DNA of 64,000 nucleotides from IMG/VR virus record IMGVR_UViG_3300042890_004365, positions 1 to 64,000 of that record; one strand, written 5' to 3'. Position numbers and translations under genes: made by a program. A model generated the notes under the pieces. That model was not told where the DNA came from and ran no database searches. It was given only the letters and a program-made list of their open reading frames with translations. Source of the DNA: a virus (Duplodnaviria; Caudoviricetes). Positions 1,716-58,143 of this stretch are shown piece after piece (the first letter of the stretch is position 1; every line of letters starts with the position of its first letter).

Positions 1716-3197
1716 TTATTTTGATTTAAAATTTTCAAAGTTTCTTATTAAATTACCTTGCTTATCTAACTTAGTAACGTCCTTAGCAGCAATTACTTTG
1801 TTATCCATTGCTGGTTCTTTTGGATGAAAAGGTTCTGCCGGTTCACTCCATTTTAAACCTAAATTGAAAGCAACACCTGATAAGTCAGAAATGATTTTAT
1901 TCTTAAACATATCAACATATTTTAAATCCAAATAAGCAGGTAATTCACATTTACCATAAACATTTGAGATTGAACCTATACCACCGTGACCACCAGAAAC
2001 TGTAATTTCGTCTTGTCCTAGTGAAGTATCTGGGTTATGATAACCTAAATGTTTTTGGAAATTTTGTAATAATTCTGTCATATATTTTCCTAAGTCACTT
2101 ACTACTTCACCATTTCTTAATACTGGTAGATTTTCAATCTTATCCATATTTTTATATGAACAAACTTGTAACGTTCCACCATATTGTAATAATATAAAGT
2201 TAGGTTCTGAATCTAAAACACCATTATTAAAATCTTTCTCAACAATAGTTCTTGCTCTTAAAGCATTTGCCCAAGTTCCAGTTGGAACATAAACTAAATC
2301 ACCAATTTTTTGATAACCGTCTAGTTGAAGATATTGACCATTTCTAAATTGAGTAGTAAACTCAGCTTGTGAATTATAAGTTTTTTTAGAAGTCATTGAA
2401 CCTCTAGTTTTCTTTTGCATTTCTCCTAATCTCCATTCAGAATCTTCGATAAAATCTTTTTTCTGACCTCTTTTAGGACCACCTAATGTAACATTATGCT
2501 CTGGGTAAACTTTCTTCATTGTATTAAAAATTGCATAGATAGAAGCATCTGGACAGTTCTCAATAACAGATATAATAGTTTTTGAATCTGATCTTTTTAT
2601 GAACTGATTAAATGCTGCACCAAACTCTAATCTTTTGTTTTTAGATTTTTTAATTTCTGATAAATCAAAATCTAAAAGTCTTTGCCACGAAACTTCATAC
2701 TGATCATATTTAGCAGCGTCAATCATATCAATAACATCTAATGTTAATGAATCTTGTGGAACACCAAGTGCTTGACAAATTGCCTCATAAGCAGAAGCAG
2801 TTTTTTTCTTTTGTACTGGTGAAGATTTGTATTTTTCTAATTCTTCCGCACTAAATAAACCATGATGATCTAAATAGTAATCTACTAAATCATCTCTTTC
2901 ATCTCCTGGCATAGAAGCAAAGTCTAAAACTACATTTATAAGTTTTGGATCTAAAGTTGTGTATTTCCAACCTTCTGTATAGTTAAGAATTCCATATTTT
3001 TCAATAGTAAAACCTGCATTTAATAAGTATTTTTTCATTTCAATTCCGCTGAACATGCCATCCATATCATCGTGAATGTAAAGTGCAACCTTTTTACCTA
3101 TCTTACCTTTTTTCAACCAATAATCTTCTGACTTTGGAAGTCTTGGTGCACCCTCTAAAATTAAATTAAATTTATTAAAATTTTCTATATTTCTCAT
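1716..3197 (-). CDS. DHH-family phosphoesterase with capsid-targeting-like termini
   Basis: HDDMDG, VLDFA, LDHH and C-terminal GGH (DHHA1-like) motifs. Confidence 0.7.
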   Translation of the reverse strand: MRNIENFNKFNLILEGAPRLPKSEDYWLKKGKIGKKVALYIHDDMDGMFSGIEMKKYLLNAGFTIEKYGILNYTEGWKYTTLDPKLINVVLDFASMPGDERDDLVDYYLDHHGLFSAEELEKYKSSPVQKKKTASAYEAICQALGVPQDSLTLDVIDMIDAAKYDQYEVSWQRLLDFDLSEIKKSKNKRLEFGAAFNQFIKRSDSKTIISVIENCPDASIYAIFNTMKKVYPEHNVTLGGPKRGQKKDFIEDSEWRLGEMQKKTRGSMTSKKTYNSQAEFTTQFRNGQYLQLDGYQKIGDLVYVPTGTWANALRARTIVEKDFNNGVLDSEPNFILLQYGGTLQVCSYKNMDKIENLPVLRNGEVVSDLGKYMTELLQNFQKHLGYHNPDTSLGQDEITVSGGHGGIGSISNVYGKCELPAYLDLKYVDMFKNKIISDLSGVAFNLGLKWSEPAEPFHPKEPAMDNKVIAAKDVTKLDKQGNLIRNFENFKSK

Positions 3198-3277
3198 AAA
3201 CTATATATTTAATTTAATTTATGTATTTTTTATGTCAAAATACTATCAGGGACGTTATGTGTTTTAATATATAATAT

Positions 3278-4174
3278 ATGATAATAGGAGTTTATAAACC
3301 AGTAAAAGAGAATAAAAGGGTTACTAGTTATAGTATATTAAATATAGGTGACTTATATAACAAAGGTTCACAGAGATATAAGGTATCTTATATCTGTGAT
3401 GGTATTCATTGTAAAACACCAGATAAAATATATTCAATAACCAGAGAACATCTTAATGAGAAAAGATCCAAGACAGTAAATGATAAAATACAAATTTGTC
3501 GTTCTTGTCAAACTACTGGTGAGAATAATCCTAGATTTGGAGACAATAGAACTTGGAATGAAATTTTTAATAAAGAAACCTCTGATAGACTTAGAAAAAA
3601 TTTAAGTGATAGATCAATAGGTGATAAAAATCCATCTAAAAATAATGGTGTTAAAGAAAAGAAAAATCAAATTATTATTAATTATGAAAATGTTAATAAA
3701 TACTTAAATCAATATAATTTTAAACTTAATTCTATTGAAGGTGATAATAAGTTTTCAAAATTAAACATAACATGTAATGAAAATCATACTTTTAATATAC
3801 AATGGGCAAGTTTTCGAGTAAGTAAAAAATGTAGATATTGTTATTATGATTCAGTGAGAATACCATTTGAGGAAATTGAAAGATTTGAAACATATTCAAA
3901 AACAGTTAGGTCATTGACAAGATTCACATTCAATAAAAATAAGAATCTTATTGATCCAAATGGGTTGAAAGATTTGGATTCTAAAAATCATCATATAGAT
4001 CATATTTATTCAATATCAGATGGATTTTTAAATGATATTGAGCCTAAAATAATTGCATCATATCATAATTTAAGAATTATTACAAAAATAGAAAATTTAC
4101 AAAAAGGTAGAAAGTCTGGTATGGAATTATCAGAATTATTAGAAATTAATAATCAGGATTGTCATAAGAATTAA
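3278..4174 (+). CDS. Free-standing HNH homing endonuclease (NUMOD-like and Zn-finger elements, C-terminal HNH)
   Basis: GENNPRFG and GDKNPSK repeats, CxxC pairs, HHIDHIYS...NLRII...EN. It lies antisense to the flanking genes. Confidence 0.75.
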   Translation: MIIGVYKPVKENKRVTSYSILNIGDLYNKGSQRYKVSYICDGIHCKTPDKIYSITREHLNEKRSKTVNDKIQICRSCQTTGENNPRFGDNRTWNEIFNKETSDRLRKNLSDRSIGDKNPSKNNGVKEKKNQIIINYENVNKYLNQYNFKLNSIEGDNKFSKLNITCNENHTFNIQWASFRVSKKCRYCYYDSVRIPFEEIERFETYSKTVRSLTRFTFNKNKNLIDPNGLKDLDSKNHHIDHIYSISDGFLNDIEPKIIASYHNLRIITKIENLQKGRKSGMELSELLEINNQDCHKN

Positions 4175-4412
4175 AACTATCTCTTATATCTTGTTCCAGT
4201 AAATCAATTGCCTTACTAAGTTTAATAACTGAGTATATACTTTCATTTTGTTTAGTATAATTACTATACTCCTTATTTTTATTATCACATTCTATTTGTG
4301 CACTTTTTATATCTAAAAATATTTCATCAATATATCCATTGTTTGGATATATTGTCCAAACATTATCAGTTGTTAGTTTATTATTCTCATTTATTTTTTT
4401 TAAATACTTCAT
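4146..4412 (-). CDS. Hypothetical protein with MKYLKKINE leader
   Basis: ATATATA box 4 nt upstream of the ATG; shared leader motif. Confidence 0.6.
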   Translation of the reverse strand: MKYLKKINENNKLTTDNVWTIYPNNGYIDEIFLDIKSAQIECDNKNKEYSNYTKQNESIYSVIKLSKAIDLLEQDIRDSFNSYDNPDY

Positions 4413-4445: not shown

Positions 4446-5258
4446 TTATCTATTATTATAATCATTTTCAATATAATACCAAGCATCATTAAAATCACCG
4501 AAGTTAAGTCCATTTTGTCGTAATAATACATCTAATTTATTAAAGTCGGGTGAATTTGGATCATAAGGATTAGTTTGAACAGTTCTACAAATATTATCGT
4601 GTATTACAAAATTTGAAGATGATTGTGTGTTATAAGAAAGTTTAAGTACTTTAGCCGGATTGTTTCTATCAGTTACAAACTTATTTTTATAGAAAATATA
4701 ATAATGTCTCCACTTTCCGGGATTTCTTGTTACTTTCCAAACAGATCTGTCTTCATCATTATCTAATTCACTAAGATAAGTATTATCTTTTTTATATACT
4801 CTTGATAAAAGATCACACAAAATTTCATTGTAAATTTGAATTCGTATACCATATATCGGTTTATTTTCAGTTAAGTTAGTAATACTCGATAGATCTTTTT
4901 CGTCCCAAATATTATTCTGTTTGTCTAAAAAATAAAATGACTTGATAACATATTCTTTTTTTAAAAAATGAAAGAATGGTATAAATCTATCTGTTATTGT
5001 ATTCCAAGTAAAAGGATACGCTTGAATTCTAGTTCTGGTTTCGGTTCTAAAATAGGTGTCCCATATATTATCATTTGTTTGACCTTCTCTTTTATAAATA
5101 TAAATTTCTAATTTATTTGCAGTATTGCCACCATTTTCTTCAGAATCACCAACAATAACTTCATATCCCTCATCAAGTAAATAAGCTAGATGATTCCTAA
5201 CAAAATCCTCAACATCTCTAATTTGATATGCCTCATTTATACTTTTTAAATATCTCAT
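4446..5258 (-). CDS. Hypothetical protein with MRYLKSINE leader; paralog of 34141-34566
   Basis: Shares HLAYLLDEGY...FTWN...IPFFHFLKKEY with 34141-34566. Confidence 0.7.
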   Translation of the reverse strand: MRYLKSINEAYQIRDVEDFVRNHLAYLLDEGYEVIVGDSEENGGNTANKLEIYIYKREGQTNDNIWDTYFRTETRTRIQAYPFTWNTITDRFIPFFHFLKKEYVIKSFYFLDKQNNIWDEKDLSSITNLTENKPIYGIRIQIYNEILCDLLSRVYKKDNTYLSELDNDEDRSVWKVTRNPGKWRHYYIFYKNKFVTDRNNPAKVLKLSYNTQSSSNFVIHDNICRTVQTNPYDPNSPDFNKLDVLLRQNGLNFGDFNDAWYYIENDYNNR

Positions 5259-7127: not shown

Positions 7128-7826
7128 ATGGAAAAGAAATGTAATATATGTGATTCTGTTAAAAATATTGAAGATTTTTACAAAAATCAAACTAGGTGTA
7201 AGTTTTGCACAAAACAATATAATTTAGAAAATAAGGAAAGGATTAGAAATTATAAAATATCCTATAAAGAAGAAGGTAAAAGATCTAAAAGTGATAAAAA
7301 GTATTATCTAAAGAACAAAGAATTTATAAATAATAAAAATAATAAGTATTATTTAGAAAATACTGATAAGGTTAAAAAGATTCAAAAAGATTATAGAGAT
7401 AATAATAAAGAAATTTTATCAATTAAAAGTTTAGAATATTCCAAAAAATATTATAGTAAGAAAAAGTCCGATCCTCTTTTTAAATTAAAAGGTAACTGTC
7501 GAAGTATGATAGGAAATGCACTTAGGTTTAATGGTTATGTAAAAAATTCTAAAACAGAGGAAATACTAGGTTGTTCCTTTGAATATTTTAAGTTATACTT
7601 AGAAAGTAAGTTTGAAGATTGGATGACTTGGGAAAATCATGGTAGGTTTAATAGTGAATTAAACTATGGTTGGGATATAGATCATATTATACCATTAGAT
7701 AGTGCTGAAATAGAAGAAGATATTATTAGACTTAATCACTATACTAATTTACAACCACTTTGTTCCTATACCAATAGACATTTAAAAATGTATAAGACTG
7801 ACTTTTATGTGATAAAGGATTACTAA
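7128..7826 (+). CDS. HNH endonuclease (WMTWEN...WDIDHIIP...NHYTNLQPL family); paralog of 53577-54191
   Basis: N-terminal CxxC pair, basic helical linker, DIDHIIP and NLQPL motifs. Confidence 0.8.
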   Translation: MEKKCNICDSVKNIEDFYKNQTRCKFCTKQYNLENKERIRNYKISYKEEGKRSKSDKKYYLKNKEFINNKNNKYYLENTDKVKKIQKDYRDNNKEILSIKSLEYSKKYYSKKKSDPLFKLKGNCRSMIGNALRFNGYVKNSKTEEILGCSFEYFKLYLESKFEDWMTWENHGRFNSELNYGWDIDHIIPLDSAEIEEDIIRLNHYTNLQPLCSYTNRHLKMYKTDFYVIKDY

Positions 7827-12517: not shown

Positions 12518-14782
12518 CTAAAAATCTGTTTTTATTGTAATATTTTTTACTCCCTCACCAACTTTTAAAGTAGGTAAGTTAAAATTAAATGAATTAGTTT
12601 TACTTAGAGTGGCAGATTTAAGCCCATTCAATTGGTTTTTAAATAGTTGTTGATGTGCCGTAGTTAAACCACTTATTGGAAGTTTATTATACCAACGTTG
12701 TTTTATGTTCATTGTTTTTAATCCTAATAATTCATATAATCTAGAAAATGCACCAGAAGTATCATCAGTAAATCCTTTGAAATCCTTAAATAATGGTTTT
12801 CCATTTGCAGTAAAATTATTATCACCTAACCTGTAGATATTCTCAATTATTTTAACAATTCGTTGATAATCATCAAATGACTTTTGTTCTGCGGTTATAG
12901 CTGGTTTAGTTGGTGGCTTTGGTGGAGTGGCTGCAGTATTTGTAGCAGTTGCATTACCAGTTGTAGCAGTTGTATTACCAGTTGTAGCAGTTGCAGTTGT
13001 ATTACCAGTTGTATTACCAGTTGCAGTTGTATTACCAGTTGTATTAGCAGTTGCAGTATTTGTACCAGTTGTATTAGCAGTTGTATTAGCAGTTGCAGCA
13101 GTTGTTGCATTTGTGGCATTTGTTGCAGCAACTTTTGGAGTTGTTGGTGTATCAGGTGTAGTAGGAACGAAATTATCAAACTCACTTTGTTTACAAAGAG
13201 TATAAGTAAATGTTTCTTTTTTAGCAATAGTAACTTGACTTTCACATAATGTTATAAATTGATCCCACTGTGATACTGTTTTAAATACTTGAGCACCTGT
13301 TGAATAATTAAATACATTTTCAGCAGATCCCATATCACTTGATTTGTGTAATAAAACAACTGATTGTTTTAAATTCACTTGTTCTGACTTGTAATTATAA
13401 ATTTTTGTAGAGTCATTCATATGTAATATAACCTCTGAAATTTTTAAACATTTTTCATTTTTGGGAGGAGTTGCACTAGGATCTGATATATAAGTATCTA
13501 GTTTACATTGATCATTATATTGTCCGAATGCTAATAAACCTGTGCCCTCTGGCAACAACTCAGTTTTTGGAAAATAACCCGGTACTGTTGTTATTTGATA
13601 TTCTAATAACTCCCAATTACCATTTTGATTTTTATAAAATACATTTAATGTATCATCAAATTTATTTGAAATACTACCATCATCCTTTTTAGATGATTGG
13701 AATGCGACAATATTTAATACACCTATTTGATCAAATGTTCGGTAACTTTTAGACTTTAGGAAACTAATCAACCTATCTATTTTTGGATTAGATGTAGTTG
13801 ATGATAGTGGATCGGCAGGTGGGTTAGTATTTATAGGACCTGTTACACCATTTGCCACACTCGCACCAGTTGTCGAAGTAACACCATTAGTACTTGCACT
13901 AGCACCTGGTGCAGTTGTAGGTGCAGTTGCAGGAGTATTTATTGGTGGTTCTACGTGTTTATCATTATACTCTGGTTTAGGACCATCTACTGGTTTGAAA
14001 TTCTCATTAGTCTTTTTAGTTAGATCATTTTCTTTCTTTGTAGAGTTCCAAGCATCTCCAACTTGTGGAGTATCTTCTCTTTTAGTATTTTTAACCGTTG
14101 AAACTTTATTATTATCTACAATATTTACGTGATGTGATAAGAAAACAGGATCTCTTAATTGTTTATATTTCATTAAAACTTGTATCATAGCAGGATTAGT
14201 AACAACTGGTGCTCCTAAATTACCTAAATAAGGACCTCCTTTATTTCCCATTAAATTATCAACAAACTCATCAAACCAATCCATCCAGTGATTTCCTAAA
14301 ATTGCTTGTTGTCCTGCAGTTGCATCTCCAATATTTACGTGTCTATTATTGTCCTTTAGATTAAGGTCAATTGTATTGTCTGTAATATTGATATTATTGA
14401 ACTTATGATCTATTTTTAAACCTTCTTTATCATTTACATATATTTGAGTTTTATGATCAAATATAAGTGACTTCATAGAAACATAATCAGTTGCAGATAA
14501 TGATGTTAGTTTTTTTTCTAAATTTACATTATAGTGATCTGCCGAGATAAACTCTGGTTTGTGTTCATCACCTGAATCAAATACAACTAAAAGTACTTTA
14601 CCTTTCTCAGGTACATTAAATTGATTACCATTAAGATCCTTCCACGGACTTGCCCAGGGTATTGCACTTACTTCAATATCATCAAAAACATCTAGGACTC
14701 TAACCCTAGCACGACCAATTTTTAAAGGATCGTTATTATCTTCAACAACCCCAATATATGTTTTATTTGCTTCTACTTTCAT
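12518..14782 (-). CDS. Baseplate hub/spike protein, T4 gp5-like N-terminal OB fold, with degenerate L,D-transpeptidase-like domain and Thr/Ala-rich linker
   Basis: YIGVVEDNNDPLKIGRARVRV...IPWA...VPEKG is the gp5/VgrG OB-fold pattern. Internal LNIVAF..NKFDD..TTVPG..H-x14-STGA. Confidence 0.75.
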   Translation of the reverse strand: MKVEANKTYIGVVEDNNDPLKIGRARVRVLDVFDDIEVSAIPWASPWKDLNGNQFNVPEKGKVLLVVFDSGDEHKPEFISADHYNVNLEKKLTSLSATDYVSMKSLIFDHKTQIYVNDKEGLKIDHKFNNINITDNTIDLNLKDNNRHVNIGDATAGQQAILGNHWMDWFDEFVDNLMGNKGGPYLGNLGAPVVTNPAMIQVLMKYKQLRDPVFLSHHVNIVDNNKVSTVKNTKREDTPQVGDAWNSTKKENDLTKKTNENFKPVDGPKPEYNDKHVEPPINTPATAPTTAPGASASTNGVTSTTGASVANGVTGPINTNPPADPLSSTTSNPKIDRLISFLKSKSYRTFDQIGVLNIVAFQSSKKDDGSISNKFDDTLNVFYKNQNGNWELLEYQITTVPGYFPKTELLPEGTGLLAFGQYNDQCKLDTYISDPSATPPKNEKCLKISEVILHMNDSTKIYNYKSEQVNLKQSVVLLHKSSDMGSAENVFNYSTGAQVFKTVSQWDQFITLCESQVTIAKKETFTYTLCKQSEFDNFVPTTPDTPTTPKVAATNATNATTAATANTTANTTGTNTATANTTGNTTATGNTTGNTTATATTGNTTATTGNATATNTAATPPKPPTKPAITAEQKSFDDYQRIVKIIENIYRLGDNNFTANGKPLFKDFKGFTDDTSGAFSRLYELLGLKTMNIKQRWYNKLPISGLTTAHQQLFKNQLNGLKSATLSKTNSFNFNLPTLKVGEGVKNITIKTDF
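12930..13130 (-). repeat. Imperfect 12-nt tandem repeats encoding a TTGN/TTAN/TATA linker
   Basis: Repeated (G/C)CAGTTGTATTA units on the + strand. Confidence 0.8.
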
Positions 14783-17090: not shown

Positions 17091-19115
17091 TTATGCAAGT
17101 GCTAGTCCAGATTCCTTTGCTCTTCTTCTTACCAAAGCAGCATATACTTTACCACCACCAGTTGTCGGACCACTTGCAATACCCTTCGATATTAGAGAAG
17201 CATTATTATCTAAAACACCTTGTTTAACGGTTTTTGCATAAGATCTAGTTTTTACTGCTTTTGCAGTATAAATATAAGCACCACAATTATATGCCAAACT
17301 TAATACTGCCGCCTTTTGATTTTTATTTAACTTAGACCAAGGACCTGCACCGAATGCACTTATCATAATTTTCTCATATTGATTTTTTATCTGATAAGCT
17401 AAGGTATCAGTAGCTTCTTGTTTTGTAAATGTTGTAGAGGCAGTAACTTCTACAAGATTAGATCCCACTAATTTCTGTGAAGTACCAAAACCTCCTCTAT
17501 AATGATCTATATCCCACTTAGCTTTACTAAGGAATCCTTCCTCGGCTGCGATAAAATTTGCTGCAATCGCATACCAACTATCACCAGGTATATTTACTTT
17601 AATAGGGGTTACTGGATTAGAAGGTTCTTTTGTATCATCTTTACTATCTGGTGGGAGATCAGTTGATCTAGGTAATGCCTGAAGTTCTTCTTGTGTGAAT
17701 CCCTCTACTGCAAATTCATCTTGACCTGCAAATTCATCTTCAACATACTCGCTACCGTAAGTGTCTGTTCCATCATCATATAGTAAAGTCTCATCTTCTT
17801 GACCAATAATAAATAAATTACCAAAGTCAGCATTTGAAAATATATCTAATTGTTCTACATTAAAAGTAAACTCTTGTGTACCTATTGTACTTACTGTTGC
17901 ACCAGGTATTGAACTTTCAGAGGCACCTGTTATAGTACTCGCGGAAGAGCCTTCTATATTACTCGCGGAAGAACCTGTCGTGATATCACCTGGTGGTACT
18001 ACTGGAGGTCCATCTGGTTCTGTATATTTAAGATAAATTGTCAAACCATAAGTACCTTCTATTATATTTTGTAAAGCAATAATTGCATCAGTTGCAAGAT
18101 TATTTTTAGATGAAGTACTTTTACCACCATTAAATGTAATAGTCCCAGTATTATTTGGTACTACTACGTTAGTCTTAGGATTTGTCCATGGATTCGGTAA
18201 TCCATTTAATGTACTATTAGGAATTATATAATTACCTGCTTCAATAAAAACTATTTTACCTTGAATCTTCTTTTCAATATCACTTAATGGATTTATTACA
18301 CTCAGTGTATAATCAGTGTTTACACCAGATTGTGTTCCAGACTGTGTTCCAGAAGTTTGAGATGGGAAAAAACCGTCACCTGCTTCCAAAACTGCTTGAA
18401 AATATTTAGATTGTTCACCAGTACCTAGAGGAAAACCAAAACCACTATTATAATAATTTGGTAAAAATTCTTTAAAAGATTCGTCAAAATTTTCTGAATT
18501 GATTATACTGGAATAATCTTTATATTTTAGGTTTGATACAGATATTTTAGTATTAAATATAGTATAATATAGTGAACGCATGAGTACGTCAAACCAAGCT
18601 TTACCTCCTAAGTTTTTTAGTTTTTTGTATGATTCTAAATTGAGAAAGCCAGAACTTTTAATTTTTAATATATTGTATAAATCCTGGCGTGTTCCAAGAC
18701 CAGTCTCATATTGTTCTGCTAAGTATGACATAGTTGCATAAGTATATCCTTCGGTATATAAAGAAGTTGGAGTTATTAGATTATCATTTACATCAAGTTT
18801 TCTATCGACATATTCTTCTACAATCTCAGGATTTTCCTTATAATTAATATATTTAACACTATAGTTTTTAGGTCCACTTGCAGGATAAGACCAGTCAAAT
18901 AATTGACCCAATGTTGTTACATCAAATCCATCTATTGTGAAGTCCTCGGAAATGCCAAAAACTTTCATTTTAGGCATTTTCAATATAAAAGGATCTGTAA
19001 GTGCAATAGCAGTTTGTCTAGCAGCTAAGTAAGCATCTACATCACTTTGTGCTGTGGCTATCTTTACATCGACTTCAGTATTCCATGCATCAATAAATTC
19101 TTGTATCTTTGACAT
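17091..19115 (-). CDS. Virion-associated protein with C-terminal GH24 (phage lysozyme) domain
   Basis: FIAAEEGF (E-x8-D), LNKNQKAAVLSLAYNCG and LVRRRAKE motifs. Confidence 0.8.
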   Translation of the reverse strand: MSKIQEFIDAWNTEVDVKIATAQSDVDAYLAARQTAIALTDPFILKMPKMKVFGISEDFTIDGFDVTTLGQLFDWSYPASGPKNYSVKYINYKENPEIVEEYVDRKLDVNDNLITPTSLYTEGYTYATMSYLAEQYETGLGTRQDLYNILKIKSSGFLNLESYKKLKNLGGKAWFDVLMRSLYYTIFNTKISVSNLKYKDYSSIINSENFDESFKEFLPNYYNSGFGFPLGTGEQSKYFQAVLEAGDGFFPSQTSGTQSGTQSGVNTDYTLSVINPLSDIEKKIQGKIVFIEAGNYIIPNSTLNGLPNPWTNPKTNVVVPNNTGTITFNGGKSTSSKNNLATDAIIALQNIIEGTYGLTIYLKYTEPDGPPVVPPGDITTGSSASNIEGSSASTITGASESSIPGATVSTIGTQEFTFNVEQLDIFSNADFGNLFIIGQEDETLLYDDGTDTYGSEYVEDEFAGQDEFAVEGFTQEELQALPRSTDLPPDSKDDTKEPSNPVTPIKVNIPGDSWYAIAANFIAAEEGFLSKAKWDIDHYRGGFGTSQKLVGSNLVEVTASTTFTKQEATDTLAYQIKNQYEKIMISAFGAGPWSKLNKNQKAAVLSLAYNCGAYIYTAKAVKTRSYAKTVKQGVLDNNASLISKGIASGPTTGGGKVYAALVRRRAKESGLALA

Positions 19116-35342: not shown

Positions 35343-35412
35343 ATTTAATTTAATTATTAGAGATTATATGAAAAAGTTGATTTTTTGTTTAATAGTTTTT
35401 AATATATAATTT

Positions 35413-36977: not shown

Positions 36978-36982
36978 AATGA

Positions 36983-37034
36983 TTATATCAAAGTTGATAA
37001 CTTTGTTTAAACTAATTTACATTTTCATGTATAA
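36983..37034. promoter_or_regulatory. Back-to-back TAAAC-N17-TATAA promoters sharing the palindrome GTTTAAAC
   Basis: TTATA 36983-87 with GTTTA 37005-09 (minus) and TAAAC 37008-12 with TATAA 37030-34 (plus). Confidence 0.6.
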
Positions 37035-37059
37035 CATAAGAACATTAAAAATATCTAAA

Positions 37060-38130: not shown

Positions 38131-38182
38131 AAAACAACCCATCTTTTTAAAAAGATGGGTTTTTTATTTAATATATAGTAGT

Positions 38183-47100: not shown

Positions 47101-48901
47101 TTTTGCAAAACACTCACTATATTTAGTAGGAGATAATGGTGAAGAAAGATATTTTATGGTTTATGATAACTCAGAACATATTGATTTATTATCTGCACAG
47201 GTTGCTTCTTTACCAATACCACCAAGTTATTTTAGTGATGCAGTAGCACTTATTGCAGGTATTGTAGTTCAACAAGGAACTTCAAGTATTGTAGAGATTA
47301 GAGATCAAAGACCAGTAGTTGGGTTTAGAGCCGCAGGAATTAATGCATCTGCAGACCACTCTTCATTAATAAACTTAGCTGCGGATGACCATCAACAATA
47401 CTTATTAACAAATGGTGCAAGAATATTAACTGGTGATTTACAAATGGGCAGTTACTCTATTCAAGGTGTTAATCTAATCAACTCAATTAATATAGAATCA
47501 CACGCATCAAGACATTTACCTGGTGCAATTGACGGATTATTAACTGGTACACCATCAACAATTGGAGTTACTAATCAAATTGGTAGTATAGCAGCATTTG
47601 CAAGACAAGACCATATTCATGCTCACGGTAATTTAGATGGTGGTTCATTACACGCTTTAGTAACTACTACACAATCAGGATTTATGTCTTTTGGAGATAA
47701 AGTTATATTGGATAATATTACAAGTTCAACACAATCTTTAACTAATAAAGGTATTACTGGTTCAACTAACTATGTTGATGCAAATGGATTGAAAACAACA
47801 ACAGATCCAGTTTATATTGTTTCTACTGCACCAAGTATTGGACAAGTTTTAATATCAACATCAGCAACTCAGGCAACTTGGCAAACTATTCCTACAGGTA
47901 CACCATCAACAATTGGTACTGTTAGTCAGATTGGTACAAGTTCAAACTATGCAAGACAAGACCATATACATTCACATGGTGACCAAGCAGGTGGTAGTTT
48001 ACACGCAACTGCATCTACAACAACTGCTGGGTTTATGTCTGCTAATGATAAAGTTATATTAGATAATATTACAAGTTCAACTCAATCTTTAACTAATAAG
48101 ACAATTATTGGAACAACTAACTATGTTGATACAAATGGATTGAAAACAACAACCAATCCAGTTTATATTGTGGCTACAGCACCAAGTGTTAATCAAGTCT
48201 TAATGGCTATATCTGCTACTCAAGCAACTTGGCAAACACCTGCTTTGGCAACTAGTACTCAATCAGGATTTATGTCTTTTGGAGATAAAGTTATATTGGA
48301 TAATATAACAAGTTCAACACAATCTTTAACTAATAAAGGTATAACAGGATCAACTAACTATGTAGAAACAAATGCATTAAAAACAAATACAAATCCAGTT
48401 TATATAGTGGCAACTGCACCAAGTATAGGACAAGTATTAACTGCGGTATCTGCAACTGCAGCAACTTGGCAAACACCAACTGCTGCCAGTACACAAAAAA
48501 ATCCAACAGATCCTACAGTAACATCTTCTACAGTTGGTGTAATGATGGGATTATCTGCATCTATAACACCTGTATTATCTGGTAAGATAATGATTATTAT
48601 ATCAGGAGATATGGACAATGATACAGGTGATGATGGTGCACAAGTACAAATGATAACTGGAACTGGAACACCACCAATAAATGGTGCTGCCTTAACTGGT
48701 ACTACACAAGGTGGTTTAGTTAAAATGAGTGTTGTTGTATCAGGTGGTGCAACAGCAGTAACAAGAGTACCATTCTCATTAAATGCAATTGTAACTGGAT
48801 TAACATTAAATACTGCAGTTTGGATTGATATAAGTTTGGCTGCAATTGGTGCTGGTAATGCAAGAGTTAGAGATGTAAGTATTTCAGTAGTTGAATTATA
48901 A
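44153..48901 (+). CDS. Long tail fibre / receptor-binding protein
   Basis: 1582 aa, Thr/Ser/Gly-rich; beta-helix-like middle; HASRH, DDHQQY and DHIH motifs; C-terminal internal repeats. Confidence 0.7.
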   Translation: MQNSGTLISAPIRPNDSLDQYASAFANEIKGGSHGYETYVEMFDIIEARREWGMLVNVYNDSDPDLNGTYQLKHGYYNNDILDNSNWEKLNLGENTSTEWVDSVISILTIEPTLEPFPGHRYLLGTIPSLSPLGTNWDNYSYGTIIVEYSNVGLWKVTIPTNGMTVRVDNDNNSIYKYEGTYPNGIWKQEKITQVFYIEPSGNGLTYSVSTDPIFNEYSRDLIFLTKFNTANNGTASININGLGYKDIKIATKNGVRDLIITDIITNGIYSLTYNGTYFQMTKPFPSDAYNIQYYIGPGEVVTVEENEQYWVYGDLTIDGGVMQNYGHVVIANGAVNLVNGGAFNNNMAGELILVDLTNTIAFNTTDTIQLSSEMTVNGPSVSAIVLDNSLKTNHLNSINTATASWIVSNDGNGSFQWEEFNALSLSYVPSGLTLTANNVQGAIDQLDSLVTDDNVIMVKKGATGSGQYETINEALDSILSPSVTNRWTIAVGAGDFYEDTITMKPWVNIVGRDRTTRIIAATSSQHVFIGADFASVISCLVTGAGPGYAAFYHTSPTGTAQSAFVIKDVIFGENDSHVICYADTNQTTVQVIDCRYGDDFIFDKGFYAYNNSFPTPSSVAARILLLHCYSQGMSAVTKPTYFAKASGENCEIVMNSVQANAAGTIQLGTTFLIIENGAKCRLNAVNFTNWDKGIWVPFLNIVGELGSKLIGVAVSCQSTNDHILIENEDTYGQLSGTFEKAKVTTLSSDVSLTYADPEVGDFTIAGGLNVTYTPTVTTDISTLIERSSTMGVIEGGYITEGLGLTLSVAAGFGYYHINSSNILNRFDWPTTEISIPSNSTYYIYFNSSNQLIYDVSIPDTSENILLGRVRTNTIGFEFIERTPLFAEHWANKATKLFRKGIGPVYSNGSIVSENATQSLHLDVSQGTYYYGANEFNPAGGTDITFESYRPDGLGDWIVVATNSVDNTYYSGTNSLIALSTGYFAKHSLYLVGDNGEERYFMVYDNSEHIDLLSAQVASLPIPPSYFSDAVALIAGIVVQQGTSSIVEIRDQRPVVGFRAAGINASADHSSLINLAADDHQQYLLTNGARILTGDLQMGSYSIQGVNLINSINIESHASRHLPGAIDGLLTGTPSTIGVTNQIGSIAAFARQDHIHAHGNLDGGSLHALVTTTQSGFMSFGDKVILDNITSSTQSLTNKGITGSTNYVDANGLKTTTDPVYIVSTAPSIGQVLISTSATQATWQTIPTGTPSTIGTVSQIGTSSNYARQDHIHSHGDQAGGSLHATASTTTAGFMSANDKVILDNITSSTQSLTNKTIIGTTNYVDTNGLKTTTNPVYIVATAPSVNQVLMAISATQATWQTPALATSTQSGFMSFGDKVILDNITSSTQSLTNKGITGSTNYVETNALKTNTNPVYIVATAPSIGQVLTAVSATAATWQTPTAASTQKNPTDPTVTSSTVGVMMGLSASITPVLSGKIMIIISGDMDNDTGDDGAQVQMITGTGTPPINGAALTGTTQGGLVKMSVVVSGGATAVTRVPFSLNAIVTGLTLNTAVWIDISLAAIGAGNARVRDVSISVVEL
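47543..48477 (+). repeat. Internal repeats in the fibre gene (two 351-nt units plus a third partial unit)
   Basis: GGTACACCATCAACAATTGG at about 47546 and 47897; the GFMS..DKVILDNITSSTQSLTNK...ATWQT block occurs three times. Confidence 0.85.
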
Positions 48902-48911: not shown

Positions 48912-49658
48912 ATGAAAGTAGATAAATATTTTGAATTTGTACAAGCTGATTTTGAACCAGTAAAATCATTTCACTTAAAAGATGAATTGAATCCTAAAAT
49001 ATGGACTGATTTTGAAATTGATGAAGAAGTAAGGGAAAATCTATTAAGAATCGCACAAGACTTTTACAACTCGACTACTTTAGAAGCTGATGTAAAAGAT
49101 GTTGTTCTAACAGGTTCATTATCAAACTATAACTGGTCTGAAAAATACTCAGATTATGACTTACATATATTAATAGATTTTACTGAAGTTAATGAAGATA
49201 TAGAATTAGTTAAAAAATATGTAGACTCCGCAAAAAATAACTTTAACAAAGAACATGATATTAATATCAAAGGTTATGAAGTAGAAGTTTATATACAAGA
49301 TGTTTCAGAAGATCACAAAGCAAGTGGTATGTTTTCACTACTTAACAATAAATGGTTAGTAAAACCCGAAAAAGTTGATTTTGAACCAGATGATGAACAA
49401 ATCAGAGAGAAAGGTAAATCAGTAATGATGTTGATTGATGATTTAGAAGATGAAGTAGATGAAGACAAATATGAACAATTTAGTGAAAAGATTAAAAAAG
49501 TTTGGGAAAAGATTAAAAACTATAGAAAAAGTGGATTAGAAAGTGAAGGTGGTGAGTTTTCACTAGGTAATTTAGTATTTAAGCTTCTAAGAAGAAATGG
49601 GTATATTGAAAAAGTTATGAAACTTAAAAGATATGCTTATGATAAACAATTTGAATAA
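48912..49658 (+). CDS. Pol-beta superfamily nucleotidyltransferase
   Basis: LTGSLSNYNWS..SDYDLH, EVEVY, GEFSLGNLVFKLLRR motifs. Confidence 0.8.
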   Translation: MKVDKYFEFVQADFEPVKSFHLKDELNPKIWTDFEIDEEVRENLLRIAQDFYNSTTLEADVKDVVLTGSLSNYNWSEKYSDYDLHILIDFTEVNEDIELVKKYVDSAKNNFNKEHDINIKGYEVEVYIQDVSEDHKASGMFSLLNNKWLVKPEKVDFEPDDEQIREKGKSVMMLIDDLEDEVDEDKYEQFSEKIKKVWEKIKNYRKSGLESEGGEFSLGNLVFKLLRRNGYIEKVMKLKRYAYDKQFE

Positions 49659-49660
49659 TT

Positions 49661-53576: not shown

Positions 53577-54191
53577 TTAATTTCTATTTCTTTTTATATC
53601 TCTATTTATTTTACTACATAATGGTTGTAGATTACTATAATGATTAAGTTTAAATATTTCCTGTTCATTAACGGCATTTGATATTGGTATAATATGATCT
53701 ATATCCCAACCATAGTTTAATTCTCCATTATATAGACCATAGTTTTCCCAATTCATCCAATTCTCAAATTTATCTTCTAAATGTTTTTTAAAATCATTAA
53801 AATTACATCCTATTATATTTAATAATTCAATTGTCGTAGAAGTTACAAACTTACCTCTACTTAAAGATTTATTTAATCTTCTTTGAAACCCATGTTTTAA
53901 TCTGTATAAAATATCTGTTCTCATTTTCATTTTATGATATTCTCTACGTCTTATCCTGTTTTTCTCTCTACGTTCATCACTAATTATATAACTATCATTA
54001 AGTTTTTTCTTTATTATTTTTCTTCTATTCTTCTCATCATCACTTAATAGGTTTAATTTTTCTTTAATAAACTCTTTGTTTTTTAAGAAGTATAATCTTT
54101 TATATTCTTTTATACAATTTTTACATTGATTAGTACCTTTATTATATTCCTCTATAACTTTTAATTCTTCACACTTTATACATTTTTTCAT
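53577..54191 (-). CDS. HNH endonuclease, paralog of 7128-7826
   Basis: CxxC pair; WMNWENYG...GWDIDHIIP...NHYSNLQPL. Confidence 0.8.
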   Translation of the reverse strand: MKKCIKCEELKVIEEYNKGTNQCKNCIKEYKRLYFLKNKEFIKEKLNLLSDDEKNRRKIIKKKLNDSYIISDERREKNRIRRREYHKMKMRTDILYRLKHGFQRRLNKSLSRGKFVTSTTIELLNIIGCNFNDFKKHLEDKFENWMNWENYGLYNGELNYGWDIDHIIPISNAVNEQEIFKLNHYSNLQPLCSKINRDIKRNRN

Positions 54192-54430: not shown

Positions 54431-55708
54431 TTAGTCAAGAACATTATCAGTAAACCACTTAATAACTAACTCTTTTGGTATCACATCACCATAATACTCT
54501 GTATATTGTTCACCACCTTTTTTAATGACGTATGACGTATCATCTGTGTTGATACTATCAAAGTATTTAACATACTCTTCAAAGCTCTTAAAACGCATCC
54601 CTAATACACTCACAGAGTCGTCATTAAATATCATCATCTTATAATCATCTGGACTAATATCAATACCAAATAGATTTCCTAAATATGTATTTAATTTTTT
54701 AACATCTTTGAAATCAAATTTAACATCTTTTTGACCTTCGATTTGAACTAAAATATCATCTAAAATGGTTACTTTAATATCAACATCTTCAAACCAAGTA
54801 TTAAATACAAGAGTATCAGTGTTATATGTATCATACTCTAATGTATTTGTATGTAGTAAGTCATATTTATTTAAAATACTTTTAACTTCTTTTACAACAC
54901 TCTTATTAGAGAAACGATGTCTTGGTGCAATTTTATATTTTGGCTCAAAATAAGTTACTTTTCTTTCAGTTGGTAAGTTCTCCCAATCAATTTTACACGC
55001 GGCTTCTGCAACTTTTTTAGTGTAAGATAAATCTACATACTCTGTTTTATAGTGTTCATTCCATCCACCAGCACTAATGTTGGTACATTCTGGAATAATG
55101 TCTAAGAAAGTCGCAGTATCTGTATAATAAGCATTTGGATCTGGTTTAGATTCAACACCTAAGTTAGTTAGTTCATCTGATAAAGCATCTGCAAAATCAA
55201 TAGAACAACAAAATCTACCTTTCTGTCTTAGTACAACAGAACCTGTTTGTTTTCTATCAAATGCAACTGCTCTTTTAAATTTTTTGAAGAATTCTGGGTT
55301 TGCTTTTAAAGCATTTTGTGAACCCCATAAACCACCACTTAAAATTGGTTCTTCTCCTAAGAAGAAGTAGTAAGTTCCAGGTATTCCTTTAGAAATCATG
55401 TATAATAAAATAGACATTCCTAATTTATTATCACCACCTAATATGGTTTTTTCATCAGTTTTGATAATATCACCTTCAATAACATGATTTACTTTTTCAT
55501 ATTCGGTACAATAAGTATCTAAGTGAGTTGTGAATAATGTTTCTGAATTACCTACTTGAATATAATAGTTACCAATAGAATCTTTTTTATATCCTGTGGG
55601 TAGATATTTTTCCAATTTAGTCTCATCACCATAAGGAATTGTATATTCAGTTAGTTTCAAAAAAGTATCCTTTATATCTAAAGGATTTATACTTTCATTT
55701 TTTGCCAT
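54431..55708 (-). CDS. M28/M20-like zinc peptidase (host-promoter copy)
   Basis: FTTHLDT, LGGDNKLG, FLGEE, FDR, YTDTA, ECTNIS..NEH motifs; TATATTTG box at 55733-55726. Confidence 0.8.
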   Translation of the reverse strand: MAKNESINPLDIKDTFLKLTEYTIPYGDETKLEKYLPTGYKKDSIGNYYIQVGNSETLFTTHLDTYCTEYEKVNHVIEGDIIKTDEKTILGGDNKLGMSILLYMISKGIPGTYYFFLGEEPILSGGLWGSQNALKANPEFFKKFKRAVAFDRKQTGSVVLRQKGRFCCSIDFADALSDELTNLGVESKPDPNAYYTDTATFLDIIPECTNISAGGWNEHYKTEYVDLSYTKKVAEAACKIDWENLPTERKVTYFEPKYKIAPRHRFSNKSVVKEVKSILNKYDLLHTNTLEYDTYNTDTLVFNTWFEDVDIKVTILDDILVQIEGQKDVKFDFKDVKKLNTYLGNLFGIDISPDDYKMMIFNDDSVSVLGMRFKSFEEYVKYFDSINTDDTSYVIKKGGEQYTEYYGDVIPKELVIKWFTDNVLD

Positions 55709-55751: not shown

Positions 55752-56339
55752 TTAAAATGGTGCATCATCATCTTCACCATAATCTTCATCAGTATCATCA
55801 TTTAATCCTTCATCATAATAGAATCCAAATTCTAAAGTTTGACCTCTTTGACTTTCCCACATATCAAATTCTGAATCATATTGTGGTAGAATATCCATTT
55901 TTAATTTATTTAAAAGATCAAAAACATTTATTACATCACTTAATCTTTCTCTATGACCCATAGAACATCTAATAGATAAATCTAAATTATCATTAGTAAT
56001 AGATACATTTTCAATACCTTTATTTTTAAACATACCTCTTAATAGATATTTTAAGTGTTCCATATCATCATCTTCAATATCTTCATCACTTAAATCTGGA
56101 TCTCTATCACCATCTTTATTATCATAATGATCAAAGTTATGAGCTATCCCACCATAATACTCACTATCATAAAAATCTTCATCATCATCAGGTATCTCAC
56201 CTGACATATCAAAACGAGATGGTAAAGAGTTACTTTTTTTTCTAGAACCACCAGCCCAGTCATCATTCCAATCTTGATCTGTACCTTCCCAGGCATCATC
56301 ATCAACTCTTTCTGTAAATCTTTTATACTTTTGTATCAT
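55752..56339 (-). CDS. Acidic hypothetical protein with MIQKYKRFTE leader
   Basis: 195-aa Asp-rich ORF starting just after the peptidase stop. Confidence 0.7.
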   Translation of the reverse strand: MIQKYKRFTERVDDDAWEGTDQDWNDDWAGGSRKKSNSLPSRFDMSGEIPDDDEDFYDSEYYGGIAHNFDHYDNKDGDRDPDLSDEDIEDDDMEHLKYLLRGMFKNKGIENVSITNDNLDLSIRCSMGHRERLSDVINVFDLLNKLKMDILPQYDSEFDMWESQRGQTLEFGFYYDEGLNDDTDEDYGEDDDAPF

Positions 56340-56340
56340 A

Positions 56341-57717
56341 TTATTTTAATTCTATTTTGATGGTTGTTTCGTCAAAAACAACGTAAGGGTCTGCGGTTCT
56401 GTGTTTATATAATAAACCTTGTACTTGTGATAATGTATCAAAGATAGTTTTAACATCTGCAAGATCTAAATCTATTTTAATGAATATTTTATCTTGAACA
56501 CCAACTACTTTAACATCTAAACCAAATATAGATTTTTTAACAGTATCAATTAAAGTTTTATGTTTTCTTAATAATTCTTCATTTATACCTACCTTTCTTA
56601 CAGCGGGCAATTGTGACCAATTTACTTTTAAAGAAGCTTTTGCTAATTTCTCTAAATAAGTCATATTTTGTATCTCTCTAAATGTATGTTCGTTATTATA
56701 TCCAACCGATACGTTAGTACATTCTGATATATCATCGATAAATGATGCAGAATCAGTAAATACTCCTGTTGGATCAGTAGATAAATTTAATCCACTTTTG
56801 TTATATTCTTTACAAAGTGCTGTAGCAAACTCATTTGAACAACAAACTCTACCATATTGAGAAGTAATAACCGAACCAGTTTTTCTTCTATCAAAAGAAA
56901 CACATTTTTTAACATTTTTTAAAAATTCAAATGAACTATATTCACTCGCCAAATCTCTTGAACCAATACCACCTCTTTCTTCTCCAATAAAGAAGTAATA
57001 AATACCTGGTATTTTATTTTCCATCATATATAACATTACTGCTACTCCTGCTTTATCATCTGCTCCTAATATAGATGTACCATCAGTATAAATATACTCA
57101 TCACCATCTTCTATTTTTGATAATAGTTTAGTAGGTAGTTGAGTTCTATCCGCAGTATCTAAGTGAGATGTAAACATTGTAGTATCATCTCCTGCAATTA
57201 CTTTATAATAATTTCCAAATTTATCTAATTCTAAGTCTGGTAAAAACTCTAAAACTTCAGTTTCGTGACCCATTGGGTAAGTTTTTGTTACCAATGATAA
57301 GAATGTTGAACGAACATCTTTTGGATTATAAACAAATGGTTTATGTTCAATTGGTGTACCAACTGGTTGTACTGTAACTTTTACTCCTTTTTTAAGATTT
57401 ACAATAGTAGTAGAGAATTTTCTAATACTTTCTTCATCATAAACACCAGGAAAATAGCTTCTCAAAAATGTTCCTATTTTGATATATTGTCTTCTTCCAC
57501 CTATTATAGCATCAAAGAAATAATCTGAATCAGAGATATCCAATCTTGATATATTCATATCATTGGCATATTTAGACCTAGGATCTGCCATCCAGTTAAG
57601 TTCATATGCAATATAATCATCATGATCATCTTCCATTGTAGTTAGAAGTTTTACTAACCTAGCAGAAAATGCAATCTTTATCTCATCTTCATATTTCATT
57701 TTATAATCATTTGCCAT
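56341..57717 (-). CDS. M28/M20-like zinc peptidase with extra N-terminal domain (late copy)
   Basis: FTSHLDT, LGADDKAG, FIGEE, FDR, FTDSA, ECTNVS..NEH motifs. Confidence 0.8.
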   Translation of the reverse strand: MANDYKMKYEDEIKIAFSARLVKLLTTMEDDHDDYIAYELNWMADPRSKYANDMNISRLDISDSDYFFDAIIGGRRQYIKIGTFLRSYFPGVYDEESIRKFSTTIVNLKKGVKVTVQPVGTPIEHKPFVYNPKDVRSTFLSLVTKTYPMGHETEVLEFLPDLELDKFGNYYKVIAGDDTTMFTSHLDTADRTQLPTKLLSKIEDGDEYIYTDGTSILGADDKAGVAVMLYMMENKIPGIYYFFIGEERGGIGSRDLASEYSSFEFLKNVKKCVSFDRRKTGSVITSQYGRVCCSNEFATALCKEYNKSGLNLSTDPTGVFTDSASFIDDISECTNVSVGYNNEHTFREIQNMTYLEKLAKASLKVNWSQLPAVRKVGINEELLRKHKTLIDTVKKSIFGLDVKVVGVQDKIFIKIDLDLADVKTIFDTLSQVQGLLYKHRTADPYVVFDETTIKIELK

Positions 57718-57750
57718 TTAAAATGTTTTTATTTTTATTATATATTAAAA

Positions 57751-58143
57751 TTATATAGTGACTTCATGTGCGTTTTTATAATCAACCATAACTTGACCAT
57801 CATTCATACCTGGTTTTTTACTAACAAATCTACGTTTACAGTAAACTACAACAGATTTATCAACACCTTTTGCCTTACTATTATCCTTTGCAATCTCTGC
57901 AACTTTCTTAATAACTTCAGGAGTTGGTATATTATCTTTAACAACAATAACTACATGACTTCCTGGAACACCTTTTACGTGCATCCATAAATCGTCATTA
58001 TCTGCAATATTAAATGTTAAGTGGTCGTTAGACCTAGCATCTTTACCTAAATGAATAATAAATCCATCAACTTCCATTTTTTTAATATTAGGAAATTTAT
58101 CTTTTTTGGATTCATTAAATTGTTTATATTTCTTTAATCTCAT
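57751..58143 (-). CDS. Stand-alone NFACT-R (DUF814) RNA-binding domain protein with leader
   Basis: IHLGKDARSNDHLT, DLWMHVKGVPGSHVVI, VAEIA..NSK motifs; start moved to MRLKKYKQFNES. Confidence 0.85.
   Translation of the reverse strand: MRLKKYKQFNESKKDKFPNIKKMEVDGFIIHLGKDARSNDHLTFNIADNDDLWMHVKGVPGSHVVIVVKDNIPTPEVIKKVAEIAKDNSKAKGVDKSVVVYCKRRFVSKKPGMNDGQVMVDYKNAHEVTI

Follow-up and report, generated by a model that had tools for sequence, protein, structure and literature searches.

Why should so many unrelated proteins of one phage begin with the same short peptide? The question is raised by the viral record IMGVR_UViG_3300042890_004365, a single contig of 74,509 bases (25-34% G+C), whose first 64 kb are here called the window. 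A preliminary description of this DNA had picked out about 16 unrelated proteins with a common N-terminal leader resembling the capsid targeting sequence (CTS) of phage T4, and had read them as a large enzyme cargo packaged in the head for injection with the DNA. All 16 quoted N-termini proved to be the starts of the longest ATG open reading frames (ORFs) at their places, and a 17th leader gene (MNYIKLFEDF) lies past the end of the window, at contig positions 73748-74302. About one protein in six of the contig begins in this way. We find that the leader is a real, portable, N-terminal tag that is selected at the protein level. By analogy with T4, we put at about 0.6 the probability that it is a short removable propeptide working like the CTS.

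Judged from its sequence, the contig comes from a megaphage of the Mahaphage clade whose head is of T4 type. The records nearest to it by tblastn belong to uncultured phages of 635-735 kb: LR745206.1 (635 kb, complete; prohead protease 84% and capsid protein 72% identical), then LR756502.1 (79% and 73%), LR756501.1 and LR756503.1 (52%) and LR756504.1 (51-52%), followed further out by LR756500.1 (462 kb), the Lak phages (about 30%) and Tenacibaculum phage PTm1 (28%). Five genomes above 634 kb belong to the Mahaphage clade, with predicted Bacteroidetes hosts, according to passages of Al-Shayeb et al. (PMC7162821). Our non-overlapping set of ORFs of at least 40 residues comprised 79 across the contig, 63 of them with their start inside the window, and LR745206.1 served as an independent test genome with 956 ORFs of at least 40 residues at a coding density of 0.93, in which stop-codon recoding brought no gain in coding. 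Beyond the window the contig also encodes a portal and a head-closure protein.

The leader is 8-15 residues long, is common to many proteins and comes in two forms. Form A, the majority, reads MK(Y/H/W)(L/I)Kx(F/I/L)(N/F)E (for example MKYLKKINE, MKYLKIFE and MKHLNLFE), and form B, the minority, M(I/R)xK(Y/W/F)(N/K)xF(x)0-4(N)E (MIKNWNQFINE, MISKYNQFLINE, MRLKKYKQFNE); in condensed form they can be written MK(Y/H)(L/I)Kx(F/Y)(N/E)E and M(I)KK(W/Y/F)NQF(I/L)NE. The leaders end in phi-x-E, mostly F/I/L-N-E↓S (the arrow marks the predicted cleavage site), as in KINE↓N, SINE↓A, FINE↓N, LINE↓S, FNE↓S, LNE↓S, IFE↓T and LFE↓D. A regular expression derived from the list of leaders, and written for both forms after the data had been seen, matched 10/79 N-termini of the contig compared to 3/374 peptides starting at an internal Met and 4/793 other open ATG frames; 2000 shuffles of the contig N-termini gave a mean of 0.44 matches and a maximum of 5. 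Because this expression was composed post hoc, a pattern-free test was added in which 8-mers were compared all-versus-all with BLOSUM62. Here, 27 of the 3081 pairs of N-termini scored at least 24, compared to means of 7.9 (maximum 16) in shuffles and 6.4 (maximum 14) among internal-Met peptides.

The same expression matched 67/956 N-termini of LR745206.1 and 6/3010 internal-Met peptides, and a position-specific scoring matrix (PSSM) refined on that genome converged on K-(H/Y)-(L/I)-K-x-(F/Y)-(N/E)-E-(F/S). At a threshold of 6.6, the level that 0.5% of internal controls exceed, 139-140 of the 956 N-termini passed; about one protein in seven (about 14%) bears the tag. When this matrix, trained on LR745206.1, was applied to the contig, 10/79 N-termini passed, nine of them in the window. 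A looser rule selected 181/956 N-termini in LR745206.1 over a background of 3.5%, and 15/79 in the contig over 5.3%. Away from N-termini the PSSM showed no excess in LR745206.1 (4 matches versus 2-6 in shuffles), and in the contig it found 3 matches versus 0-1 in shuffles, some of which are mis-called starts. BLASTP of the 17 leader proteins of the contig found a match in LR745206.1 for 11 and none for 6, and all 11 matches have a leader-like start by eye, seven of them also by PSSM or pattern. Thus, the leader is enriched over shuffled N-termini in the contig, the comparison by which the preliminary description proposed to judge its claim, and over internal-Met peptides in an independent genome, and the figure of about 16 tagged proteins stands as a count by eye, whereas a stringent count gives 9-12.

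We also searched with a pattern taken from T4 itself. In T4 (NC_000866) the internal proteins IPII and IPIII start MKTYQEFIAE and IPI starts MKTFKEFTST. Passages of PMC9026906 describe that the first 10 residues of IPIII suffice to package, that residues 4 and 7 serve targeting and residues 8 and 10 processing, and that the protease gp21 cleaves after L/I-x-E. Of 90 T4 ORFs, the a priori pattern, aromatic-x-x-F-aliphatic-x-E near the start and allowed to slide by a few residues, picked IPII and IPIII alone. The pattern matched 20/956 N-termini of LR745206.1 versus 1/3010 controls (about 60-fold), and 2/79 versus 0/374 in the contig. Form B matches the T4 tag at the functional residues, while form A keeps a hydrophobic residue, the Phe and the Glu in a spacing other than that of T4.

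That the leader behaves as a module is seen most clearly in two protein families. The gene directly downstream of the capsid gene encodes an NFACT-R domain (Pfam 1.3e-13), for which 444 homologues were found; among the best 120, 104 have 125-133 residues. All 104 carry a Glu at position 6-13, followed by Ser in 57, Gly in 46 and Asn in one; P3 is F, L or Y in 99/104, and KKDK follows P1' in 82/104 (consensus KKDKFP). These homologues carry either leader form (MKYLKKFE↓S or MIKKFNSFNE↓S), and divergent short homologues, taken from clusters at 50% identity, retain a leader (for example MKLLKYNLFVE↓SKKDKFP); a few distant ones begin straight at the domain. In two-domain forms LNE↓SKKKFP or FINE↓SKKDKFP is retained at the internal junction. 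An AlphaFold2 model built on the NFACT-R alignment (mean predicted local distance difference test score, pLDDT, 85.8) begins its fold near residue 20 and gives residues 1-14 a pLDDT below 50 and no secondary structure, so the tag is predicted to lie outside the fold of its carrier. In the HAD-like family, 111 of the best 120 homologues could be anchored on the DxD motif, which 9 lack, and in 106/111 DxD stands near the N-terminus (in 105 at positions 15-27) behind a short extension. The 40 commonest HAD-like N-termini, read by eye, are leader-like and include both forms. Five fused HAD-like forms (365-374 residues) have MKYLKLFNE↓S at the start or preceded by a short upstream extension, and their junction retains ...KVKSLFE↓S. 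The two leader forms are thus interchangeable within one homologue family, NFACT-R or HAD-like.

Codon usage tells at which level the leader is kept. At conserved leader positions Lys is encoded by AAA at a frequency of 0.76, compared to 0.74 genome-wide, Leu uses five codons in near-background shares, and Ser uses both TCN and AGT. Since synonymous codon choice mirrors the genome-wide pattern, it is the peptide that is under selection, and the reading as a conserved DNA cassette falls away together with most of any reading at the RNA level. A nucleotide-level motif or mobile gene-start cassette, considered as a candidate, was rejected on this ground.

We then compared the end of the tag with the head machinery. 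The capsid protein aligns with T4 gp23 and gp24, and the protease is the N-terminal part of a 725-residue protein laid out as a protease domain, about ten 14-residue repeats, a strongly acidic stretch and a C-terminal part. In T4, gp21 and gp22 are separate; here the protease and a scaffold-like part are in one protein. Residues 5-218 are 34% identical to the product of a cyanophage gene annotated as prohead core scaffold protein or head maturation protease. The protease domain (residues 1-165) is gp21-like, with His72 (EFDHPD) and Ser127/128 (FVSSRAAG) aligning with ELNHPP and GVSSRG of T4 gp21; BLASTP against gp21 gave E=0.001, Pfam Peptidase_S77 reached only E=0.025, under its cut-off, and a sequence search of the PDB with the whole protein returned only a chance coiled-coil match (E=0.49).

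The tripeptide NES, the preferred end of the tag, occurs six times in this protein, where about 0.26 would be expected at the rate of the whole contig, 0.037 per 100 residues (Poisson p=3e-7), which ranks it first of 68 proteins; its LR745206.1 orthologue has four (p=7e-5, first of 686). One copy, LNES at residues 166-169, is the end of the protease domain. It closes that domain in 120/120 of the best homologues (the best 120 of 1546 with E<=1e-10), which are closely related (at least 83% identity) and so are not 120 independent observations; in the same 120, NE[SG] occurs on average 4.6 times per protein versus 1.1 in shuffles. Across six megaphage genomes the domain-end site is (L/I)NES in five and VNEA in the sixth. 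The counterpart of the domain-end LNES in T4 gp21 is, by alignment, ITE↓S close to the C-terminal end, and an N-terminal LIVE↓N aligns with LIE-9 of gp21, a candidate self-cleavage site according to passages of PMC9026906. The capsid propeptide carries I-N-E↓N at residues 41-44; phi-x-E↓N is kept in 6/6 megaphage capsid proteins (variants INE, MNE, IHE and LYE) and aligns with IFEN of gp23 and INE of gp24. The end of the tag would therefore be the same as the likely sites of protease self-cleavage and of capsid maturation in a T4-type head, a match that we regard as the strongest new evidence.

Packaging, cleavage, prohead binding and injection of the tagged proteins are inferred, and we propose the following steps. 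Tagged proteins would be made late, together with the head proteins; the hydrophobic and aromatic face of the tag would bind the prohead core, built from the protease-scaffold fusion; the gp21-like protease would cleave after the Glu of phi-x-E, as it would also cleave itself, the scaffold part and the capsid propeptide; and the mature proteins would stay inside the capsid and pass into the next cell along with the DNA.

Immediately downstream of the capsid gene, two leader genes alternate with two peptidase genes, and in LR745206.1 84/145 leader genes lie in runs of at least two, compared to 40 expected and at most 61 in 1000 shuffles. Many genes are preceded by a box with the consensus TTT(A/T)ATATATA, whose distance to the ATG is bimodal, with a sharp peak at 4-5 nucleotides (20 of the 41 boxed genes in the contig, 93 genes in LR745206.1) and a broad one at 19-25; the capsid, protease and tail genes are in the far class. 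A box 0-8 nucleotides upstream of the ATG was found for 7/10 PSSM-positive leader genes versus 14/69 others in the contig, and the near box for 49/145 versus 58/811 in LR745206.1, where 74/145 leader genes have no box within 60 nucleotides. Leader genes are thus enriched for the box, as had been noticed before, but with 7/10 the statement that nearly all of them follow it was too strong. Judging by the spacing, near-box genes would yield leaderless or almost leaderless mRNAs. We also compared non-leader proteins of at least 150 residues, 98 with a box and a random 98 of the 257 without. Head, connector or tail proteins made up 9/98 of the former (capsid, portal, large terminase, sheath, tube, head-closure, adaptor, head-decoration and a fibre protein) and 1/98 of the latter, a baseplate protein, beside a ClpP that PHROGs places under head protease. 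The box resembles the T4 late promoter, TATAAATA, and because of this likeness and a gp55-like late sigma factor gene outside the window, late co-expression of leader genes with head genes is plausible. The phage also encodes the translation initiation factor IF3. IF3 discriminates against leaderless mRNAs, and a phage IF3 is of interest beside so many leaderless-looking genes.

A Pfam scan of 138 tagged proteins returned a match for about 11, and most have no family. The families recognised were NUDIX (twice), DUF6576 (twice), NFACT-R, M15 peptidase, RNA ligase 1, poly(A) polymerase/CCA-type enzyme and 2H phosphoesterase, the last joined to an RNase T domain; an M42 protein, a glutamyl/glutaminyl-tRNA synthetase and a weak HTH_45 match also passed the PSSM, with unconvincing leaders, and are probably false positives. 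No tail, portal, terminase or DNA-replication protein was recognised by Pfam among the 138. The tag is real and portable and sits on unrelated proteins, as the idea of a large packaged enzyme cargo supposed, but "enzyme" was overstated for the window, where the NFACT-R label held and the HAD label at 25485-26135 is weak (HAD_2 E=0.025, phrog_415 1.2e-7, FDFDDT motif). Of the proteins said to lack the leader, the UvsW-like helicase, polymerase, ClpP, M42 and Dam do lack it, whereas the supposed clamp (34563-35342) matches no family and the supposed RNase R (62809 onwards) matches only a PHROG named nuclease.

Several observations weigh against a CTS-like role, in addition to the close relatedness of the protease homologues. 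The megaphage PSSM passes 0 of 90 T4 ORFs and does not pick the internal proteins, so that by sequence the majority form is distinct from the T4 leader; the best T4 score of the PSSM, 3.7 against the threshold of 6.6, falls on the gp24 propeptide MAKINELLRE. The tagged proteins are acidic (median isoelectric point 4.9 versus 5.5 for the rest, p=8e-9; 79% below 6). IPII and IPIII of T4 are basic. The DHH, nuclease, zincin, SCM and nucleotidyltransferase labels given to leader proteins correspond to no family in Pfam (E up to 0.5) or PHROGs. The box stands also on UvsW, UvsX, both topoisomerase II subunits, the clamp loader and SbcC; a strictly late promoter was rejected because of UvsX, topoisomerase II and the clamp loader, and since the box is not confined to virion genes, late co-expression can be called no more than plausible. 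A 635-kb genome would carry about 135 putative cargo species, more than the 89 virion proteins given for phage 201phi2-1 in passages of PMC9026906, and no proteome of this uncultured phage was found in the literature searched. In Tenacibaculum phage PTm1, the nearest cultured relative sampled, 0/23 annotated coding sequences in 25 kb around the capsid gene have the leader, so PTm1 is unusable as a proteomic stand-in. The MKYLK-type leader is likewise absent from 42 kb around the capsid gene of Lak-A1, read with TAG as sense. In this small sample of 39 ORFs two paralogues start MNKxIKxL(I/L)E(S/N)LFDD, and there are one or two further candidates; the MNKxIKxL(I/L)E(S/N) starts are perhaps a Lak version of the tag. 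The coding density of the Lak-A1 region (MK250016.1, 26853-68748) rises from 0.62 to 0.88 when TAG is read as sense, as expected in Lak phages.

Some of these points would suit a signal unrelated to the capsid, either a Clp-type degron or the address of another phage-made compartment. An acidic cargo and a share of about 14% of the proteome fit the cytoplasm better than packed DNA, the phage encodes a genuine ClpP, and the tag, like degrons, is a disordered N-terminal extension. Such a signal leaves unexplained, however, why the tag-end motif recurs at the end of the protease domain (120/120), in the scaffold part and in the capsid propeptide, and why phi-x-E↓S stands at the junctions of fused forms, and the match to the T4 functional residues (20/956 versus 1/3010) is specific; we therefore consider it fairly unlikely. 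All of the cleavage-site evidence fits equally well a propeptide that the phage protease cuts for activation or timing, in the manner of a zymogen, from proteins neither kept in the head nor injected. Yet gp21, according to passages of PMC9026906, belongs to the prohead core and processes head proteins as the prohead matures, and with the protease here fused to the scaffold its substrates should be inside the prohead; moreover, a disordered tag of 8-12 residues outside the fold is unlikely to inhibit many unrelated folds. This too seems an unlikely explanation.

A role in translation, with the first codons or the nascent peptide tuned for initiation on leaderless mRNAs, draws on the enrichment of the near box on leader genes, with its spacing peak at 4-5 nucleotides, on the encoded IF3 and on Lys at position 2, which is common to all N-termini. 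We regard it as quite improbable, as about half of the leader genes (74/145) are boxless within 60 nucleotides, codon choice follows the background, the 58 near-box genes without a leader show that the box needs no tag, and the conserved F...N-E-S element, found 7-12 codons from the start, appears again at internal junctions and within the protease-scaffold protein. That the shared start is functionless baggage, inherited through duplication of ORFans or recombination of gene-start cassettes, would account for the tandem arrays (84/145 in runs), and the 6/17 leader proteins without a BLASTP match in the closest complete genome suggest fast turnover. But the carriers of the tag belong to unrelated families (NFACT-R, HAD-like, NUDIX, RNA ligase, poly(A) polymerase type), and the tag persists in 104/104 NFACT-R homologues of 125-133 residues and in the HAD-like N-termini read while its sequence and length drift, and shows no nucleotide-level conservation beyond codon bias, which makes this explanation very improbable.

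If the tag is a CTS-like propeptide, it would give a readout, from sequence, alone, of the packaged and injected proteome of uncultured huge phages, which so far resist cultivation and most of whose genes lack an assigned function. The roughly 135 genes per genome that bear it would be first-minute effectors, likely counter-defence or takeover factors; the cargo would partly explain the large genome and capsid; and a short portable tag with a defined protease would be a candidate for loading foreign proteins into large capsids. More tentatively, at somewhat less than even odds, more than 100 proteins, about a seventh of the proteome, may be pre-loaded by means of the cleavable tag and delivered with the DNA as a "starter proteome" against host defences, some of them as polyproteins that the protease cuts at internal copies of the tag end. 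On that possibility the cargo would include RNA-repair enzymes (an RNA ligase, a CCA/poly(A)-type nucleotidyltransferase, a 2H phosphoesterase-exonuclease), NUDIX and HAD-type hydrolases and an NFACT-R protein resembling ribosome-rescue factors.

Table 1. Leader genes, head genes and other features (positions in the window unless marked as contig positions; the DNA of each leader is given in brackets; ↓, predicted cleavage site).
Feature	Position	Strand	Leader or motif	Remarks
Leader gene, 493 residues	1716-3197	-	MRNIENFNKFNLILE↓G (3153-3197)	no family found; leader-like C-terminal end IRNFENFK (1725-1748)
Leader gene, 88 residues	4146-4412	-	MKYLKKINE↓N (4386-4412)	PSSM 19.6; no family
Leader gene, 270 residues	4446-5258	-	MRYLKSINE↓A (5232-5258)	PSSM 15.8; no family
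Leader gene, HAD-like, 216 residues	25485-26135	+	MKYLKIFE↓T (25485-25508)	FDFDDT motif
Leader gene, 385 residues	26563-27720	+	MLLKFNNFIKE↓S (26563-26595)	second leader-like VKTFSDFNE↓S inside (27445-27474)
Leader gene, 195 residues	29485-30072	-	MIKRYNQFVDDKINE↓E (30028-30072)	
Leader gene, 242 residues	30847-31575	+	MKWIKLNE↓S (30847-30870)	PSSM 6.7
Leader gene, 103 residues	31583-31894	+	MKRIDTFNKFNE↓S (31583-31618)	
Leader gene, 141 residues	34141-34566	+	MKYIKLFE↓D (34141-34164)	PSSM 12.2
Leader gene, 323 residues	35413-36384	+	MIKNWNQFINE↓N (35413-35445)	matches the pattern derived from T4 IPII/IPIII
Leader gene, 88 residues	36384-36650	+	MKHLNLFE↓E (36384-36407)	PSSM 20.4
Leader gene, 354 residues	38183-39247	+	MISKYNQFLINE↓S (38183-38218)	
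Weaker leader gene, 225 residues	40274-40951	-	MIKKFENFNDNSE↓E (40913-40951)	PSSM 3.7, under threshold; C-terminal end MQHLKSFF (40286-40309)
Leader gene, 248 residues	48912-49658	+	MKVDKYFE↓F (48912-48935)	phrog_36119, function unknown
Leader gene, 195 residues	55752-56339	-	MIQKYKRFTE↓R (56310-56339)	a peptidase gene on either side; near the capsid gene
Leader gene, NFACT-R domain, 130 residues	57751-58143	-	MRLKKYKQFNE↓SKKDKFP (58111-58143)	directly downstream of the capsid gene
Major capsid protein, gp23 family	58215-59957	-		Pfam Gp23 2e-29; phrog_138 1.9e-26
Capsid propeptide site	59826-59837		I-N-E↓N	residues 41-44
Prohead protease-scaffold fusion, 725 residues	60045-62222	-		phrog_207 1.2e-27; gene upstream of the capsid gene
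42-nucleotide repeat, 10 copies	60901-61334	-	YSEY(L/I)AENLDKNI(x)	encodes the 14-residue scaffold repeat
End of protease domain	61716-61727		LNES	residues 166-169
Upstream box, examples	25468-25484, 35396-35412, 38166-38182		TTT(A/T)ATATATA	
M28-like / phrog_4191 peptidase genes	54431-55708, 56341-57717	-		flank the leader gene beside the capsid gene
M42 aminopeptidase	36979-38130	+		
ClpP	24765-25424	-		full-length; Pfam CLP_protease 1.1e-65; classed by PHROGs with the head maturation proteases; separate from the gp21-like protease
Translation initiation factor IF3	33389-33820	-		possibly from TTG 33922; IF3_C 7.5e-24, IF3_N 2.6e-14
gp55-like late sigma factor	contig 69772-70146			outside the window
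Family B DNA polymerase ORF	31925-33355	-		C-terminal half of the PHROG profile only (475-839 of 856)
Large protein	17091-19115	-	MSKIQ(E/I)FID	C-terminal phage lysozyme domain (6.4e-09)
Large protein	19122-22163	-	MSKIQ(E/I)FID	
gp5-like baseplate hub	12518-14782			
Endonuclease VII/HNH-like and phrog_5104 genes	3278-4174, 7128-7826, 62409-62816	+		
Endonuclease VII/HNH-like and phrog_5104 genes	53577-54191	-		
Endonuclease VII/HNH-like and phrog_5104 genes	contig 66901-67578			
ORF of 1582 residues	44153-48901	+		no Pfam or PHROG match
237-nucleotide tandem repeat	48047-48477			1.8 copies, 82% matches; in the 1582-residue ORF

The internal and C-terminal copies of the leader reported earlier are present as claimed (Table 1). 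VKTFSDFNE↓S, at about residue 295 of 385, fits the junction sites of the fused homologues; the two C-terminal copies are without the Glu and unexplained. Two adjoining large proteins both begin with MSKIQ(E/I)FID, a start reminiscent of the T4 leader and under the threshold of the leader PSSM; one has a lysozyme domain, both lie near the gp5-like baseplate hub, and they could be tail or ejected lysins. As to the M28-like and M42 peptidases, we would guess that they might clear freed propeptides. Elsewhere in the window, the polymerase ORF covers half of its profile and the polymerase therefore seems split, the other half not being adjacent, and the scattered endonuclease VII/HNH-like and phrog_5104 genes are probably homing endonucleases. 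The 1582-residue ORF contains a tandem repeat.

Short, disordered and portable peptides that address unrelated enzymes to the inside of an HK97-fold shell are known from encapsulins. Encapsulin cargo-loading peptides are usually C-terminal, bind the shell protein and stay uncleaved, and their compartment is cellular, not a virion; they resemble the tag in shortness, disorder and portability, differ from it in terminus, and would differ in cleavage and compartment. Closer in setting are the phiKZ-like giants (phiKZ gp175, 201phi2-1, SPN3US gp245), giant phages as here, in which a diverged gp21-type protease cuts many head proteins after Glu and a large protein cargo is ejected with the DNA, according to passages of PMC9026906 and PMC5694885. 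Their propeptides, as far as these passages describe them, are mostly longer than 100 residues, protein-specific and cut at S/A-x-E, whereas the leaders here are short, common and have F/L/I/Y at P3; membership in the phiKZ-type propeptide class was rejected on the grounds of the common 8-15-residue leaders and this P3 preference, and phi-x-E is nearer to the T4 rule than to that of phiKZ.

The closest likeness is to the T4 CTS, carried by IPI, IPII and IPIII and by the Alt and gp24 propeptides, whose function is described in passages of PMC9026906, PMC3012670 and PMC12373910. In both systems an N-terminal tag of 8-15 residues, rich in Lys at its start, built around aromatic-x-x-Phe and ending in phi-x-Glu, sits on unrelated, dispensable-looking proteins whose genes form arrays, beside a gp23-type capsid protein and a gp21-type protease. 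They differ in scale, with three proteins in T4 and "at least 10" among its relatives (in passages of PMC12373910) compared to about 14% of the proteome here, and in the acidic cargo, which includes recognisable enzyme families, and the preferred site phi-N-E↓S of the megaphage. We found no published description of this tag in the parts of the literature searched, huge-phage and jumbo-phage papers included. Thus, the principle is known from T4, and what is new here is the scale, a second leader form, fused cargo with internal sites and the fusion of protease and scaffold in one protein.

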